Source: Candidatus Nomurabacteria bacterium RIFCSPHIGHO2_01_FULL_36_23
GTDB taxonomy: Bacteria; Patescibacteriota; Minisyncoccia; Phycocordibacterales; UBA9973
Assembly (NCBI GenBank): GCA_001786745.1
Contig: MFTF01000008.1
Coordinates: 1-39,869 of the forward strand
Direction of reading: 5' to 3'
DNA: 39,869 nucleotides
In this document: piece after piece, positions 24,725-31,688 of the stretch
How positions within the stretch are numbered: position 1 is the stretch's first letter
How the letters are laid out: each line of letters opens with the position of its first letter
The notes under the pieces: generated by a model
Database searches by the model: none
Seen by the model: only the letters and a program-made list of their open reading frames with translations
What the model was told of the DNA's origin: nothing
Program-made: the position numbers and the translations under genes

Positions 24725-26875
24725 CTATTTCCTTGCCGCAATGATAGTTTCGGCAACATTTTGCGGAACAATATCGTAACGGAAGAATTCCATGGTGAAA
24801 GAAGCGCGGCCTTCGGTCATAGAACGCAGACCGGTCATATATCCGAACATTTCGGAAAGAGGCACAATAGCGCGAATAACTTTATTCATTCCTCTGTCTT
24901 CCATCCCTTCAATCAGCGCGCGCTTGGAAGAAAGATTGCCGGTAACATCGCCCATAAATTTTTCCGGAATAATAACTTCAACTTTCATCATGGGCTCTAG
25001 AATTACCGGAGTGGCTCTGCGACAAGCGTCTTGCACGGCCATACTTGAGGCAATTTTGAAAGCCATTTCGTTGGAATCCACTTCATGATAACTTCCATCC
25101 CAAAGTTCTACTGAAACATTGACCATTTTAAATCCAGCCAAAATTCCACGATCTAAACCTTCCTTGAATCCCTTTTCACAAGGCGCGATATATTCCTGCG
25201 GAATCATTCCTCCTCTAATAGAATTCACAAACTCAAAACCTGGTGATCTCTTGGTGTTTTTCGGTAAGTCTTCTAATTCTTCTTTTGTTAAGACGGTCAT
25301 TGGCTTTACTTTAATTTTTACGTGTCCATAGTTTCCACGTCCGCCGGATTGTTTAATATATTTGCCTTCTGCTTCAGCTGTGCCACTGATCGTCTCACGA
25401 TAAGCCACTTGCGGTTTGCCGACATTCGCCTCCACGGTAAATTCACGCTTCATTCTATCCACAATAATTTCTAAGTGTAATTCTCCCATACCAGCGATGA
25501 TAGTTTCCCCTGTTTCTTGGTCGGTGCTGACTTTAAAAGTGGGATCTTCTTGAGCCAGTCTATTTAAAGCCATTCCCATTTTTTCTTGGTCAGCTTTTGT
25601 CTTTGGTTCAATGCGAAGTGAAATAACTGGCTCGGGAAAAACAATTCTATCTAGAATGATTGGATTATTTTCATCACAAAGAGTATCTGAGGTAATAGTA
25701 TCTTTCAGACCCACCGCAGCTGCTATTTCTCCGGCAAAAACTTGTTTTACTTCTTCTCTGTCATTAGCGTGCATTCGTAAGATTCGGCCAATACGCTCTT
25801 TGTTGCGAGTACGCGGATTATAGACATAACTTCCAGCAGAGAGAATTCCTGAATATACACGAAAGAAAATAAGCTGGCCGACAAATGGATCGGTGGCAAC
25901 TTTAAAAGCAAGCGCCGCAAAAGGTTCTGAGTCAGAAGCATTTCTCGCAATTAGCTTGTCGTCATCATTTGGATCAATGCCCGGAATAGGCGGAATATCT
26001 GTCGGAGCTGGTAAGTAGTCCACTACGCCGTCGAGCACTAGTTGAATGCCTTTGTTTTTAAGCGCGGAACCGGCAAAAACTGGGAAAATTTTATTCGCGA
26101 TAACGGCTTTACGGAGAGTTTTCTTTAAGGTGTTAAAATCTGGAATCATACCCTCTAAATATTCTGTCATCATAACTTCATCTGTCTCAACTATTTTCTC
26201 CACAAGCTCAGAGTGATACTTTTCCGCATCGACCCTTAAATTTTCGGGAATATCTTTTTCTATAACTTTGTTCCCCATTTCTCCTTCAAAATAATATGCT
26301 TTCATGCGAAGAACATCAATGACTCCCTCAAACTTTTCTTCAAGCCCAATAGGAATCTGCATTCGGACAGCTTTTTTGCTTAGCCGGTCTAAAATTGTCG
26401 CATATGAATGTTCAAAAGAAGCGCCGATTCTATCCAGTTTATTAATAAAACAAATACGAGGCACTTTGGCTTCATCCGCATAGCGCCAATTTGTTTCCGA
26501 TTGCGGTTCCACTCCGGCCACGCCATCAAAAACAACAACGGCGCCATCCAGAACACGCAGAGAACGTTTTACTTCTACGGTAAAATCAATGTGTCCGGGA
26601 GTGTCAATAATATTAAAGCGATGCTTCTTATTTTTATCAGTGAGAGCGTATGTGGGTGTCCAAAAACATGTCACTGCGGCAGAGGTGATAGTAATACCGC
26701 GCTCCCTTTCTTGCTCCATCCAATCAGTAACCGTATCACCTTCATGAACTTCACCAATTTTATGCGATACACCAGTATAAAAAAGCACGCGTTCAGTCGT
26801 GGTCGTTTTACCCGCATCAATGTGCGCGATAATTCCAATATTCCTGACTTTTTCTAGGGGGTAATCTCGTTCCAT
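24725..26875 (-). CDS. fusA: elongation factor G
   Basis: [20 protein letters not shown]...DTPGHIDF...NKLDR. 716 aa. Confidence 0.98.
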
Positions 26876-26939: not shown

Positions 26940-26982
26940 TTCCAATATTTCTGACTTCCTCTAGTGGATAATCCCGTTCCAT
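26940..26982 (-). pseudogene. duplicated fusA 5' fragment (first 14 codons), 107 nt upstream of the real fusA start
   Basis: ATGGAACGGGATTATCCACTAGAGGAAGTCAGAAATATTGGAA versus the real ATGGAACGAGATTACCCCCTAGAAAAAGTCAGGAATATTGGAA. They match at 37 of 43 positions, and 5 of the 6 differences are synonymous. Confidence 0.85.
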
Positions 26983-29621: not shown

Positions 29622-29870
29622 ATGAAAAAAGTATGTGCGATAACAAAAAAAGGTTCAATCGTAGGTGGCGGATATTCCAATAGAACCCGCGCCACTAAAT
29701 TTAATCCCACTGGTATGGTGCGAAAATATCCAAATCTTCAAAAGAAGAGAATTTTTATTCCTGAATTAAACAAATCTATTAACATCGAAGTTTCAACCCA
29801 AGGCATGCGCACCATGAAGAAAAACGGTGTCTACGCCACCCTCTTCAAAGCTGGGTTAATAAAGGGATAA
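29622..29870 (+). CDS. rpmB: 50S ribosomal protein L28
   Basis: MKKVCAITKKGSIVGGGYSNRTRATKFNPTGMVRKYPNLQKKR. ATG 29622 is preferred over the TTG at 29586. Confidence 0.9.
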   Translation: MKKVCAITKKGSIVGGGYSNRTRATKFNPTGMVRKYPNLQKKRIFIPELNKSINIEVSTQGMRTMKKNGVYATLFKAGLIKG

Positions 29871-29872
29871 AT

Positions 29873-29928
29873 TTACCCTGGCACAAAAGTAAGCGCTGTG
29901 CCTTTTTTGCCAGAACGACCAGTTCGAC
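29873..29928 (-). pseudogene. duplicated 3' end (last 17 codons plus stop) of the DEAD-box helicase gene
   Basis: Matches 30462-30517 at 51 of 56 positions. It still encodes RTGRSGKKGTALTFVPG*, and every difference inside complete codons is synonymous. Confidence 0.85.
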
Positions 29929-29934
29929 ACAAAA

Positions 29935-30171
29935 CTATTTTTTCTTTTTTAACAGAATCACTAATTCTTCTTTTGAAATATCTAAATCGGTCAAAATTCC
30001 CAAAAGTGTGCCCTTAGGAATTTCTTTGTTCCTGTGAATTGGAATAGTGATTTTCTTTCCGTTGGAATGTCGAAGCACGTGATGGCTGCCTTGTGTGTGA
30101 TCTAAGGCATATCCTATTCTTTGCAGAATTTTCAAAAGTTGTTTGCCTTTTACATTTGGCAGTTTAGGCAT
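29935..30171 (-). CDS. hicA: HicA-family mRNA interferase toxin (second copy)
   Basis: MPKLPNVKGKQLLKILQRIGYALDHTQGSHHVLRHSNGKKITIPIH. ATG 30171 is preferred. Confidence 0.8.
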   Translation of the reverse strand: MPKLPNVKGKQLLKILQRIGYALDHTQGSHHVLRHSNGKKITIPIHRNKEIPKGTLLGILTDLDISKEELVILLKKKK

Positions 30172-30418
30172 ACACCTTCCTGCTAGTAGAAAAAATCGGG
30201 ATCGAGACAGTTTCGATGGATTGAAGTCCATTATCGGCTGGAATTACATCCCCATGTTTAGAGCAAGAAAGAAGATAGCCCTCAATCGCTTCGTTTAGAT
30301 TCTTTTTTGTTTCTTCAATAGTTTTGCCATAAGTATGGCACCCCAAAAGGGTTGGCACAAAACCATGATATTGTTTACCGTCTTTTTCAATTATTGTACG
30401 AAATGAATAACTTTTCAT
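30164..30418 (-). CDS. hicB: HicB-family antitoxin (second copy)
   Basis: FRTIIEKDGKQYHGFVPTLLGCHTYGKTIEETKKNLNEAIEGYL. Overlaps hicA by 8 nt. Confidence 0.8.
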   Translation of the reverse strand: MKSYSFRTIIEKDGKQYHGFVPTLLGCHTYGKTIEETKKNLNEAIEGYLLSCSKHGDVIPADNGLQSIETVSIPIFSTSRKVYA

Positions 30419-30424
30419 ATTTAT

Positions 30425-30454
30425 AGTATATTAAAAATATACTACCAAAGTCAA
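30425..30454 (-). promoter_or_regulatory. sigma70-like promoter TTGACT-18-TATACT, 6 nt upstream of the hicB ATG 30418
   Basis: Minus strand reads TTGACT ttggtagtatatttttaa TATACT ataaat ATG. Confidence 0.5.
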
Positions 30455-30461
30455 CTAGAGA

Positions 30462-31517
30462 TTACCCTGGCACAAAGGTCAACGCTGTGCCTTTTTTGCC
30501 AGAACGACCAGTACGGCCGATGCGGTGAATGTAGGTGTTGTAAGTTTGTGGCACATCGTAGTTGATGACGTGCGTAACGTCTGGAATATCCAGTCCACGC
30601 GCGGCAACATCGGTCGCAATTAAAATATTTATGCGGTCTTTTTTAAAAGAATCAAGTATGCGGATGCGTTCTCGACTTCTCTTGTCGCCATGAATAGCTC
30701 CCACCTTGAATCCAAATTGAGATAATTCTTTAGCTAGAGAGTCTACGTTATGTTTCATTTCACGAAAAATCAACACTTTATCTGAGCCGTCTTTTTTTAA
30801 AACTTCATGTAATTTTTCTAATTTTTCTTCTTTGCTTCTGGTACGAATGACATCTTGATCAATATTTTTTAATGTTTCGCCTGAAATCACAGAAATAAAA
30901 ATTGGATCTTTTAAATATTGAGTTGTTAATTTTTTAATTTCCGGGGAAAGAGTCGCGGAAAAGAAGAGAGTTTGTCGTTCTTTTGAAGTTTTGCCGATTA
31001 TATAAATCATATCGTCGCGAAATCCCATATCGAGCATTCTGTCTGCTTCGTCCAGAACGACACTATGACATGTAGACAAATCCAAAATTTTTCTATCAAT
31101 CAAATCCCGCAGTCGCCCCGGTGTGCCGATAATAAAAGAGACCCCCATTTTTATTTCTCTAATTTGTTTCATAATCGGTAACCCCCCGACACATGCCACC
31201 GAAAACATTCCGAATCCAAAAGCCAGATTTTTAAAATCACTTTCTATTTGAAGCGCCAGTTCTCGAGTCGGCGCCATTATCAAAACCGTCTCTCTTTTGT
31301 TTTTTCCTTTGGTTTTGGAAATTTTTTCAATGAGAGGTAAAAGAAACGCCGCAGTTTTGCCTGTGCCGGTATTGGCCATGCCGAAAACATCCCTGCCTTC
31401 CATAACTGAAGAAATGGCTTGGTCCTGAATGGGCCTTGGATGAATGAATCCGGCTCGGGCAATATTTTTATGCAATTGCGGATTAAAAGGAAAATCCACA
31501 AAACTATGTTTGGACAC
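30462..31517 (-). CDS. DEAD-box ATP-dependent RNA helicase; the reading frame stays open 55 codons upstream to ATA 31682
   Basis: Motifs MANTGTGKT, PTRELA, VLDEADRMLDMGF, SAT and HRIGRTGR. The track start is GTG 31517, but the upstream in-frame stretch looks like part of the protein. Confidence 0.9.
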   Translation of the reverse strand: MSKHSFVDFPFNPQLHKNIARAGFIHPRPIQDQAISSVMEGRDVFGMANTGTGKTAAFLLPLIEKISKTKGKNKRETVLIMAPTRELALQIESDFKNLAFGFGMFSVACVGGLPIMKQIREIKMGVSFIIGTPGRLRDLIDRKILDLSTCHSVVLDEADRMLDMGFRDDMIYIIGKTSKERQTLFFSATLSPEIKKLTTQYLKDPIFISVISGETLKNIDQDVIRTRSKEEKLEKLHEVLKKDGSDKVLIFREMKHNVDSLAKELSQFGFKVGAIHGDKRSRERIRILDSFKKDRINILIATDVAARGLDIPDVTHVINYDVPQTYNTYIHRIGRTGRSGKKGTALTFVPG

Positions 31518-31688
31518 ATAGGGCTTTTCCTCTACAAAAATATTTTTCTTAATAAAACGTGAAAAATCTATCCGTTCGCCACGTCTTTTATTTGATTTTT
31601 TATTATTCCTATTCTTATAGTTGCCACTTTTGCCAAAACGAGAATGAGAATTGCTATGGAATTTTCTGAAAGTTTTAATTATGATTTT

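Follow-up and report, generated by a model that had tools for sequence, protein, structure and literature searches.

Introduction

Several mobile elements integrate in protein-coding genes and bring a substitute gene end with them, as e14 and phage 21 do in icd and SXT does at the 5′ end of prfC. Neisseria minimal mobile elements are variable cassettes that lie between conserved genes and are swapped by transformation. Restriction-modification genes, as described by Furuta, Abe and Kobayashi (2010; PMC2853133) with reference to Nobusato et al. (2000), can insert with a long target duplication of more than 30 bp, carry no mobility genes and are found mostly in competent species. Two further processes, homology-facilitated illegitimate recombination (HFIR) and Campbell-type single-crossover insertion-duplication, were reported by de Vries and Wackernagel (2002) and Prudhomme et al. 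(2002), as cited in PMC3240628 and PMC5361080. According to the account in PMC3240628, HFIR involves 3-10-bp microhomology at the illegitimate joint, single-crossover products duplicate part of the homologous locus, and such duplication was observed for single crossovers of circular molecules in E. coli. C-terminal displacement and orphan arrays have been described at Rhs, CDI and T6SS effector-immunity loci (Jackson et al. 2009; Kirchberger et al. 2017; PMC5361080), and sequential displacement of the HFIR type has been proposed for T6SS and Rhs arrays in the latter source.

Here we describe a hicBA cassette that lies between two essential genes and is bracketed by two copies of the 3′ end of a neighbouring helicase gene. 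It belongs to an uncultured groundwater bacterium of the Candidatus Nomurabacteria type (CPR), and we analyzed it in the window, that is, the whole 39,869-nt stretch of DNA under study, and in related genomes.

Results

The interval between the helicase and rpmB genes contains the cassette together with a second copy of the helicase 3′ end, which we refer to as the remnant (Table 1). The preliminary description of this DNA had claimed a repeat of the last 56 nt of the helicase gene, and the alignment confirmed it: when extended by hand, the two copies are identical at 51/56 positions, and the core alignment (29873-29926 against 30462-30515) is identical at 50/54. Local alignment of the cassette flanks gave a score of 88, compared with a top score of 28 in 100 shuffles. 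Translation likewise bore out that both copies encode RTGRSGKKGTALTFVPG and a stop codon on the minus strand, and that none of the four differences in whole codons changes an amino acid (CGA/CGT, ACT/ACC and CTT/TTG, the last counted as two); the fifth mismatch lies within a partial codon. The remnant begins 2 nt past the rpmB stop codon (29868-29870). As first described, the 533 bp between the repeats hold one promoter, hicB and hicA; these are the only contents of the insert, which has no transposase, no inverted repeats or attC-like structure were found at its ends, and there is no integrase within 2.5 kb of it.

The repeat-cassette structure showed zero differences across the NCBI record, the JGI contig, the ENA contig and Logan contigs from several runs. 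Furthermore, an identical L28 protein was found in three places, all independent assemblies, with the same arrangement in 3/3. Since independent assemblies and runs carry the structure unchanged, an assembly artefact can be excluded. A cassette-free or excised joint of the same strain was not found in the Logan contigs of 12 runs, which are assembled contigs from which rare variants are dropped.

Table 1. Features of the helicase-rpmB interval, with positions in the window.
Feature	Position	Strand	Remarks
rpmB (ribosomal protein L28, 82 aa)	29622..29870	+	PF00830; exact protein in three independent assemblies; convergent with helicase
Remnant helicase 3′ end	29873..29928	-	18 codons including stop, plus 2 nt; outside any gene
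Spacer between hicA stop and remnant, 6 nt	29929..29934	-	presumed recombination joint
hicA toxin gene, 78 aa as called	29935..30171	-	PF07927, E=1.2e-16; ORF open to 30231
hicB antitoxin gene, 84 aa	30164..30418	-	PF21748, PF15919
Promoter TTGACT-18-TATACT	30425..30454	-	the cassette's own
Spacer between helicase stop and -35 box, 7 nt	30455..30461	-	
Live helicase 3′ end	30462..30517	-	second repeat copy
DEAD-box RNA helicase	30462..31517	-	PF00270 and PF00271; ORF from GTG, 351 aa

The HicA domain was recognized with 61 bits (cut-off 27), and HicB matched PF21748 with 35.7 bits and PF15919 with 29.8 bits, the latter barely over the cut-off of 27; the 84-aa HicB has no recognizable DNA-binding domain. 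The two features by which HicAB membership is judged, a toxin domain and an adjacent HicB-type antitoxin in one operon, are both present, and by its domains hicBA is a type II toxin-antitoxin pair in which HicA is predicted to be toxic and HicB to neutralise it. The hicB stop and hicA start overlap by 8 nt (ATGCCTAA). The cassette promoter has 10/12 matches, and the layout of its boxes is conserved in homologous cassettes found in other contexts. The hicB transcript is probably leaderless because the ATG lies only 6 nt past the -10 box. Homologues at this junction and at other loci are 59-78% identical for HicA, and HicB homologues show 73-90% identity. The public gene call for the helicase is longer than the ORF given in Table 1 (405 aa, extending to about 31679).

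We also considered whether the remnant has a function of its own. A role as the rpmB terminator was rejected: the sequence folds only weakly (-13.8 kcal/mol, z = -1.7), its U-run is part of the stem, and a scan for terminators was empty. An Rfam search of the region returned no known RNA at E up to 1. Translation of the remnant within another protein was also rejected: the upstream frame is closed in two relatives, L008 and L028, and since it is not consistently open in the relatives' remnants, the remnant is unlikely to be translated.

We then compared the junction across relatives. The helicase and rpmB genes are convergent in 74 related species, and the helicase protein is 84-93% identical in 80 relatives. 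In 7/74 species the two stop codons are at most 6 nt apart or overlap, and these empty sites support the preliminary reading of the repeat as an insertion scar. Relatives with an uninterrupted junction, for which that description had proposed a search, do exist, and in one species, L003, the junction reads GTGCCAGGGTAA-AT-TTA, with the same 2-nt "AT" spacer as follows the remnant in the window; the 2 nt between the remnant and the rpmB stop match this uninterrupted junction. The repeat is a single uninterrupted target in insert-free genomes, namely L003, other relatives and relatives from the same samples, and in the same-sample relatives with an uninterrupted junction the helicase end matches the window's remnant at 44/47 positions. 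In 43/74 relatives the junction is instead filled with 0.2-4.4 kb of unrelated small cassettes, whose cargo includes hicBA, ParE/RelE, BrnT/BrnA, Fic, GNAT and 11 PaaX_M (Cas2-like) genes. The helicase-rpmB junction is thus an insertion hotspot. The inserts at these 43 loci contain 69 ORFs, none of which encodes a tyrosine or serine recombinase or a DDE transposase; two of the 69 are Y1_Tnp genes.

Spare helicase or rpmB 3′ ends were present in about 20 genomes, beside differing cargo and always in direct orientation. Copies of the helicase end occur in L008, L023, L028, L032, L069, L074 and L092, and copies of the rpmB end in L006, L007, L008, L012, L016, L018, L023, L025/L082, L033, L040 and L091. 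The preliminary description had named, as an outcome that would refute it, relatives that lack hicBA and yet carry both helicase-end copies; L008, L023, L028, L032, L069 and L074 do carry both, around other cargo. A cassette-specific repeat is therefore refuted, and the insertion-scar idea stands. Helicase-end remnants sit on the rpmB side of cassettes that adjoin the helicase gene, and rpmB-end remnants sit on the helicase side of cassettes that adjoin rpmB, a rule that is predicted by successive displacement anchored in either flanking gene. Two relatives, L008 and L023, combine both kinds in the order rpmB remnant, cargo, helicase remnant. Four helicase remnants have left boundaries that cluster at -56 +/- 4 nt; for further helicase remnants the starting points are approximately -78, -45, -41 and -36. 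The rpmB-end remnants are between 32 and about 95 nt long. A PaaX_M gene lies directly upstream of 5/8 helicase remnants in relatives; L008 and L069 carry related PaaX_M cassettes with the same end sequence, which join the helicase remnant at different positions.

Scars of this kind also occur away from the junction. The window has a second one at 26940-26982, where the fusA 5′ end is repeated with 37/43 positions identical and 5/6 differences synonymous, and in L032 34 nt of the rpsG 3′ end are repeated without a mismatch around a RelE-type pair. The hicBA family itself (HicB as in the homologues above) was found in five settings: between the helicase and a helicase remnant (the window and L092), in the order helicase, rpmB remnant, hicBA and rpmB (L025/L082), as a clean insert between helicase and rpmB with no repeat (L094), at unrelated loci, and at another locus where 32 nt of the mnmA 5′ end are repeated as its flank (L086).

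An investigation of the differences between the remnants and the live gene ends showed 37 synonymous and 7 non-synonymous differing codons in the pooled helicase remnants, which gives P of about 2e-7 against duplication followed by decay. Because these remnants are mostly synonymous, the copies behave as two diverged functional alleles rather than as a decaying local duplicate, in agreement with the preliminary description. Its argument from synonymous differences was weak as long as it relied on the window (P of about 0.04 under duplication then divergence), and became strong once the relatives' remnants were pooled. In L028 all eight differences are synonymous, and no frameshifts were found in the helicase remnants. 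For rpmB-end remnants the corresponding count was 41:37, with no significant synonymous excess (P=0.14).

In three relatives the differences are unevenly distributed. The first 23 nt of the L008 remnant are identical to the live end, after which 9/10 codons differ; the L032 remnant has a 41-nt identical core, with differences only in the first two and last three codons; and the L028 remnant has a rare 14-mer (1/80 species) in common with the live end amid its synonymous differences. These patterns point to putative crossovers within the repeat. The nearest relatives are about 80% identical in DNA, with neither copy consistently closer to them, and no species pair among the relatives exceeds 91% identity. 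The GC content of the cassette is 34.9% compared to 37.1% for the window, and GC and codon usage are uninformative as to which copy is resident. The preliminary description took the live end to be the imported one and the copy on the rpmB side to be the resident one, which may be the case.

Discussion

We consider that the cassette most probably entered by an integrase-free insertion anchored by homology in a conserved flanking gene, either by HFIR or by a single crossover, and we put the probability of this reading at roughly 60%. The ancestral state in this lineage would have been a junction with the helicase and rpmB stops 2 nt apart, so that no insertion would have been possible without cutting one of the genes. 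The cassette would then have been fixed by recombination, with the conserved flanking gene as the homology anchor and an integrase being unnecessary. In the first route (HFIR), one incoming end would cross over within the gene, while the other would form an illegitimate joint some 56 nt short of the stop codon of the resident helicase. In the second, a circular fragment with a short gene-end segment would be inserted through a single crossover. Either route would yield a complete helicase, the cassette and a displaced 56-nt helicase end abutting rpmB. The two copies would derive from two related lineages, in each of which the copy was a working gene end, and this would explain why the differences between them are only synonymous. 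We infer the route of recombination, with the DNA presumably taken up through natural transformation; natural competence has been demonstrated in CPR Saccharibacteria, as reported in PMC10187176. Since scars of like kind are found at the same spot in relatives, the structure belongs to a known type of recombination scar and is not a new mobile element. Three observations nevertheless speak against this explanation: the clustering of four boundaries at -56 +/- 4 is tighter than random illegitimate joints should give, the identical central stretches with diverged flanking codons in L032, L008 and L028 are not predicted by a single end-to-end contrast between donor and recipient, and the rpmB-end remnants lack a significant synonymous excess.

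The locus resembles the HFIR and Campbell-type products described in PMC3240628 and PMC5361080 in that one junction is homologous and the other is not, and in that a dedicated recombinase is not needed. Unlike in the E. coli experiments as described there (109-950 bp), the repeats in the CPR scars are short, from 32 to about 95 nt, and a donor, a transfer route and microhomology at the illegitimate joint have to be postulated. The likeness to Rhs, CDI and T6SS loci, as these are presented in PMC5361080, lies in the entry of modules beside a conserved gene, the pushing of the old end downstream and the leftover 3′ ends in arrays. In contrast to the toxin domains of those loci, what is displaced here is the short tail, without function, of a housekeeping gene (helicase, L28, S7 or EF-G), and the new end in the CPR scar encodes the same protein rather than a new variant. 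There is a further parallel with restriction-modification inserts, as characterized in PMC2853133: a small selfish or addictive module is enclosed by direct repeats exceeding 30 bp, the repeat is a single-copy target in insert-free genomes and often overlaps a gene 3′ end, there is no transposase or integrase inside, and the copies are not always identical. Likewise, the repeats around the cassette exceed 30 bp (56 nt, 51/56), the target is uninterrupted in relatives, and the insert has no mobility gene. The cassette differs from the inserts described in that source in its cargo, a type II toxin-antitoxin pair, and its CPR host; its repeat is wholly coding, with pooled copies that are diverged functional alleles, and the two convergent core genes enclose a hotspot that takes up many kinds of cassette.

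A different origin would be a true long target duplication, in which the copies were identical at birth, through staggered breaks or a single crossover with near-identical DNA, and were later partly overwritten by allelic exchange ending inside the repeat. Partial overwriting by neighbouring alleles would make the synonymous differences secondary. The mosaic differences in L008 and L032 fit such an origin, as does the perfect rpsG-end copy flanking the toxin-antitoxin insert in L032; the L008 and L023 layout is that expected from duplication of the whole junction, and the match of the same-sample empty-junction relatives to the remnant means that suitable donors exist. It would, however, call for two or more events at each locus; staggered breaks about 50-110 nt apart would need a nuclease or transposase, of which none is evident; and the window and L025 each have only one of the two expected remnants. 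We therefore regard this origin as possible but unlikely.

Site-specific integration, which the preliminary description had offered as an alternative in the form of an att-like site in the gene end, is in our judgement decidedly unlikely. Here the 56 nt would be attL and attR at the helicase 3′ end, the element would supply the substitute end, the integrase would have been lost or act in trans, and hicBA would be an addiction module left from a decayed island. The common boundary of four remnants would suit such a site, and the L032 core and the L028 14-mer look like the core of a crossover. Classic cases of this kind, e14 and phage 21 in icd and likewise SXT, also duplicate the gene end, exchange it for a mostly synonymous substitute and leave the original end at the far side of the insert. 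Unlike those elements, the 533-bp insert has no integrase, in itself or within 2.5 kb, and apparently lacks a constant att boundary: the insert ORFs at the 43 loci contain no integrase (0/69), other helicase remnants start elsewhere, the PaaX_M cassettes of L008 and L069 meet the remnant at differing positions, and rpmB-end remnants vary in length. Furthermore, the 3′ ends of both genes are used here and 5′ ends elsewhere, and the same hicBA family is accompanied by a helicase end, an rpmB end, an mnmA 5′ end or no repeat at all. The Neisseria minimal mobile elements share with this locus a fixed conserved gene pair with alternative small cassettes per lineage, but their exchange, through a double homologous crossover, is not known to duplicate gene ends.

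A speculative and improbable extension is that small cassettes of the CPR (toxin-antitoxin, PaaX_M/Cas2-like) move without an integrase, using the carried host gene end as portable homology or a nuclease encoded in the cassette. In the former case, recombination between the repeats would free a circle consisting of the cassette and one gene end, and a crossover over a short stretch of homology would then place this circle in the same conserved gene in a different lineage; in the latter, a nuclease such as the Cas2-like PaaX_M protein would make the breaks. If true, either route would account for both the -56 boundary cluster and the identical cores in diverged repeats.

It is also conceivable, though very doubtful, that the cassette came first as a clean insert and that the remnant is foreign, DNA of an empty-junction relative having recombined via rpmB with an illegitimate join just past hicA. 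Selection would have disfavoured full replacement, since this would have cost the strain its toxin-antitoxin pair. The clean helicase-hicBA-rpmB arrangement is known in L094, empty-junction relatives with a remnant-like helicase end share samples with this strain, and the predicted product is identical to the observed structure, so that the present data do not separate this sequence of events from homology-anchored insertion. However, remnants also flank cargo other than toxin-antitoxin pairs, and killing after loss of hicBA would have to be presumed. An insertion sequence or transposon with target-site duplication was rejected, given that there are no terminal inverted repeats and no transposase and that the synonymous bias of the pooled remnants is incompatible with the decay of copies that began as identical. 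Local duplication with neutral decay, which the four synonymous differences of the window reject only weakly, or an assembly artefact, can be given almost no credence in view of the pooled codon counts, the lack of frameshifts in helicase remnants and the identity of independent assemblies and runs.

The class of mechanism favoured here, homology-anchored insertion, is already known from restriction-modification genes, Rhs/T6SS loci and transformation experiments; what the present case offers is a clean example replicated over many genomes, and it establishes no new principle. The helicase-rpmB and rpsG-fusA junctions, 2 kb apart, act as hotspots for integrase-free toxin-antitoxin and other small cassettes. 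For ultra-small, streamlined CPR genomes, this would be a route to gain accessory genes without free intergenic DNA, as the old gene end is displaced by one that the incoming DNA supplies. Displaced gene ends may therefore serve as practical markers of recent recombination between lineages in unculturable organisms.

Two alleles of the helicase 3′ end bracket the hicBA cassette

Self-comparison of the window (37% GC) returned 29873-29926 and 30462-30515 as a direct repeat identical at 50 of 54 positions. The preliminary description had reported a 56-nt repeat matching at 51 of 56 positions, with the same encoded peptide and only synonymous changes in whole codons, and re-alignment confirmed this. 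On the minus strand either copy translates to RTGRSGKKGTALTFVPG plus a stop; the four whole-codon nucleotide differences (CGA/CGT, CTT/TTG with two changes, and ACT/ACC) are all synonymous, and the fifth difference lies in a partial codon at the repeat boundary. Local alignment of the two cassette flanks scored 88, and none of 100 shuffles exceeded 28. The arrangement is identical in one contig each from a JGI metagenome and ENA, in an NCBI record, and in Logan contigs of several runs on groundwater and sediment; an assembly artefact is therefore ruled out. The public call for the helicase gene is 405 aa, while the longest ORF starting from ATG, GTG or TTG is 351 aa; the longer call thus presupposes additional N-terminal residues and an unusual start codon.

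Features of the window and of related loci
Feature	Locus	Position	Description
Left copy (remnant)	window	29873-29928	spare helicase 3′ end; begins 2 nt past the rpmB stop codon
Right copy (live end)	window	30462-30517	end of the DEAD-box helicase gene (PF00270 + PF00271)
Helicase gene	window	30462-31679	
Interval between copies	window	29929-30461	533 bp
Cassette promoter	window		TTGACT-18-TATACT, between the copies, before hicB
hicB	window		ATG 6 nt past the -10 box; PF21748/PF15919
hicA	window		start overlaps hicB stop by 8 nt; PF07927
Convergent gene tails	window	29873-29912, 29830-29870	
fusA, first 14 codons	window	26833-26875	
fusA 5′-end copy	window	26940-26982	107 nt upstream
Region with rpsG (S7) 3′-end copy	L032	10941-12162	perfect, 34 nt, 1.15 kb downstream of rpsG
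hicBA homologue (close)	L086	67-701	different locus; 32-nt copy of mnmA 5′ end alongside (30/32)
PaaX_M gene + remnant	L008	7647-8252	
PaaX_M gene + remnant	L023	7354-7710	
PaaX_M gene + remnant	L028	5214-5945	
PaaX_M gene + remnant	L032	7814-8509	
PaaX_M gene + remnant	L069	about 2095-2723	

We compared the live end and the remnant codon by codon in the window and in related loci. Pooled helicase-end remnants gave 37 synonymous and 7 non-synonymous codon differences; pooled rpmB-end remnants gave 41 and 37. Under a null model in which identical copies diverge, the live copy taking synonymous changes only and the remnant drifting freely, ~46% of differences are expected to be synonymous. The pooled helicase remnants depart strongly from this value (P ~2e-7), which argues strongly against a local duplicate under decay, and the rpmB remnants do not differ significantly from it (P=0.14). 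In one related locus (L028) all 8 differences are synonymous, and no frameshifts were found in the helicase remnants. It follows from the synonymous excess and the intact frames that the helicase remnants served as functional gene ends until recently. Recombination between lineages placed them beside another allele; they are not decaying duplicates. The two-allele origin proposed in the preliminary description was thus right, although its support comes from the pooled remnants of relatives, the window alone being insufficient (P ~0.04).

The differences are often arranged as mosaics. In the L032 repeat the central 41 nt are identical and differences are confined to two codons at the start and three at the end, in the L008 repeat 23 identical nt are followed by differences in 9 of 10 codons, and in L028 the two copies share a 14-mer, found in only one of 80 species, amid the 8 synonymous differences. 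These patterns suggest crossovers or conversion within the repeat, possibly through a Campbell-type exchange or because routine exchange of alleles at the adjacent gene later overwrote one copy. Neither the live end nor the remnant is consistently closer to relatives (~80% DNA identity), and codon usage does not separate an imported from a resident copy; either one may be the import.

A general cassette hotspot between the helicase and rpmB genes

The helicase protein as query retrieved 80 loci from Candidatus Nomurabacteria/Paceibacterota genomes (84-93% amino-acid identity). Both genes were on the contig in 74, and were convergent in all 74. The stop codons overlap or lie at most 6 nt apart in 7 loci, a spacer of 26-47 nt, typically with one hairpin, separates them in 20, a spacer of 94-149 nt in 4, and 0.2-4.4 kb of inserted DNA in 43. 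The insert content is unrelated and differs from genome to genome, consisting mostly of small genes with their own promoters directly past the helicase stop. A Pfam scan of 69 non-overlapping insert ORFs found PaaX_M (Cas2-like) proteins to be the commonest cargo (11 of 69), alongside components of toxin-antitoxin systems (ParE/RelE, BrnT/CopG and HicA), Fic, GNAT, hydrolases and one patatin; there were two IS200-like Y1 transposase homologues, and no tyrosine recombinase, serine recombinase or DDE transposase. In these bacteria the junction is a general hotspot for cassettes.

Relatives co-occurring in the same aquifer samples (Logan contigs of runs X3, X5 and X6) have an uninterrupted junction with overlapping stop codons, and their helicase end matches the window remnant (29880-29926) at 44 of 47 positions. 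The junction of relative L003, GTGCCAGGGTAA-AT-TTA, is laid out like the join of remnant and rpmB in the window, and the copy beside rpmB therefore occupies a native junction. Logan contigs, which hide rare variants, yielded no form of the window strain lacking the cassette.

Searching each insert against its own gene ends, and each locus against itself, revealed gene-end copies in direct orientation: helicase 3′ ends in L008, L023, L028, L032, L069, L074 and L092, and rpmB 3′ ends in L006, L007, L008, L012, L016, L018, L023, L025/L082, L033, L040 and L091, with lengths of 32 to ~95 nt. Where a cassette adjoins the helicase, the helicase-end remnant is found on its rpmB side, and where a cassette adjoins rpmB, the rpmB-end remnant is found on its helicase side; L008 and L023 are arrays with both types, and L032, L074 and L092 carry additional cargo past the remnant. 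This layout is expected if new cassettes enter beside one or other of the conserved genes and displace its former end inward. The preliminary description had listed both copies in relatives without hicBA among the outcomes that would refute it, and such relatives do occur; they refute a hicBA-specific repeat, while the insertion-scar idea stands.

Of the eight helicase-end remnants in relatives, five have a PaaX_M (Cas2-like, winged-helix) gene directly upstream, and ACGGCCGT-type palindromes bracket those genes. Scars of the same kind occur elsewhere. The fusA 5′-end copy in the window (37/43 identical; 5 of 6 differences synonymous) lies at the edge of an rpsG-fusA island that carries a PaaX_M/Cas2-like gene. 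Enclosed by the rpsG-end repeat in L032 are an ORF of 155 aa and a toxin-antitoxin pair of RelE/ParE type; a HicB/HicA-like pair comes after the copy.

The hicBA family occurs in several settings

A HicB metagenome scan found the window's own strain and 17 close cassette relatives (HicB identity 73-90%). The helicase-hicBA-helicase remnant order of the window recurs in L092, whereas L025/L082 has helicase-rpmB remnant-hicBA-rpmB with a 57-nt repeat (51/57), L007 has rpmB remnant-hicBA-other cargo, L091 is arranged like L007 with no hicA detected, and L094 is a clean helicase-hicBA-rpmB insert without a repeat. The family also occurs at several unrelated loci, beside rpoC, map and others; in L086 the stop codon of hicA and the start codon of mnmA overlap. 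Conservation across contexts is limited to the promoter-to-stop unit, which on its own is no proof of a discrete mobile unit because selection on working parts would give the same result at this divergence. The 6-nt distance from the -10 box to the ATG (within 30419-30454 in the window) is shared by most homologous cassettes (L007, L025, L086, L089, L092), and this points to a conserved, predicted leaderless transcript. Many other hotspot cassettes also have TGnTATAAT a few bases 5′ of the ATG. In runs X3, X6 and X8, a contig that matches the 3′ end of hicA and the 5′ end of hicB at ~88-90% has most of the interior (compared with 29936-30418) deleted, and looks like an eroded cassette copy from another organism or locus.

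Insertion probably proceeded without a recombinase

The structures match homology-anchored, recombinase-free insertion, by which the cassette would have entered. In homology-facilitated illegitimate recombination (HFIR), as described in PMC3240628, one incoming end recombines in homology and the other joins at 3-10-bp microhomology; that E. coli study also found circular molecules to insert by a single crossover, with duplication of part of the homologous locus. PMC2853133 describes "insertion with long target duplication" for restriction-modification genes, with repeats >30 bp and without mobility genes, mostly in competent species and often overlapping gene 3′ ends. For Rhs and T6SS effector-immunity arrays, in which 3′ ends are left over, sequential displacement of the HFIR type has been proposed (PMC5361080), and PMC10187176 reports natural competence in CPR Saccharibacteria. 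With the helicase and rpmB stops 2 nt apart and rpmB presumably essential, viable joints would fall only inside the helicase tail, which would explain the short displaced end.

The preliminary description had offered integration at an att-like site within the helicase gene end as an alternative. Four helicase remnants (window, L008, L028, L032) do have their boundary at -56 ± 4 nt relative to the stop, against about -78, -45, -41 and -36 for the others, and this cluster may mark either a preferred site or a hotspot of GC-rich microhomology (GGCCGNACNGG, within a gene that is AT-rich). A dedicated att site is nevertheless unlikely: no integrase occurs among the 69 insert ORFs or within 2.5 kb of the cassette, remnant lengths and the gene ends used both vary, the hicBA family occurs with different repeats or none, and the related PaaX_M cassettes of L008 and L069, which have the same terminal sequence, join the helicase remnant at different positions. 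A transposon is rejected, as the cassette has no inverted repeats and no transposase.

Other roles for the remnant were also rejected. As an rpmB terminator it folds weakly and has no terminator-like site; it has no Rfam match to a known RNA; and the upstream frame is closed in relatives, which argues against its translation. Both convergent tails encode Lys-Lys-Gly/Asn ~12-17 codons before the stop, and each therefore has an A-run beside a short, GC-rich inverted repeat. Read on the strand of the partner gene, this looks like a hairpin followed by a T-run, but the folds do not differ significantly from those of shuffled sequences.

Taken with the remnants in relatives, the data support an insertion scar built from two alleles. 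The event belongs to a known kind, of which it is a clean example replicated across genomes; the cargo and the host group are new.
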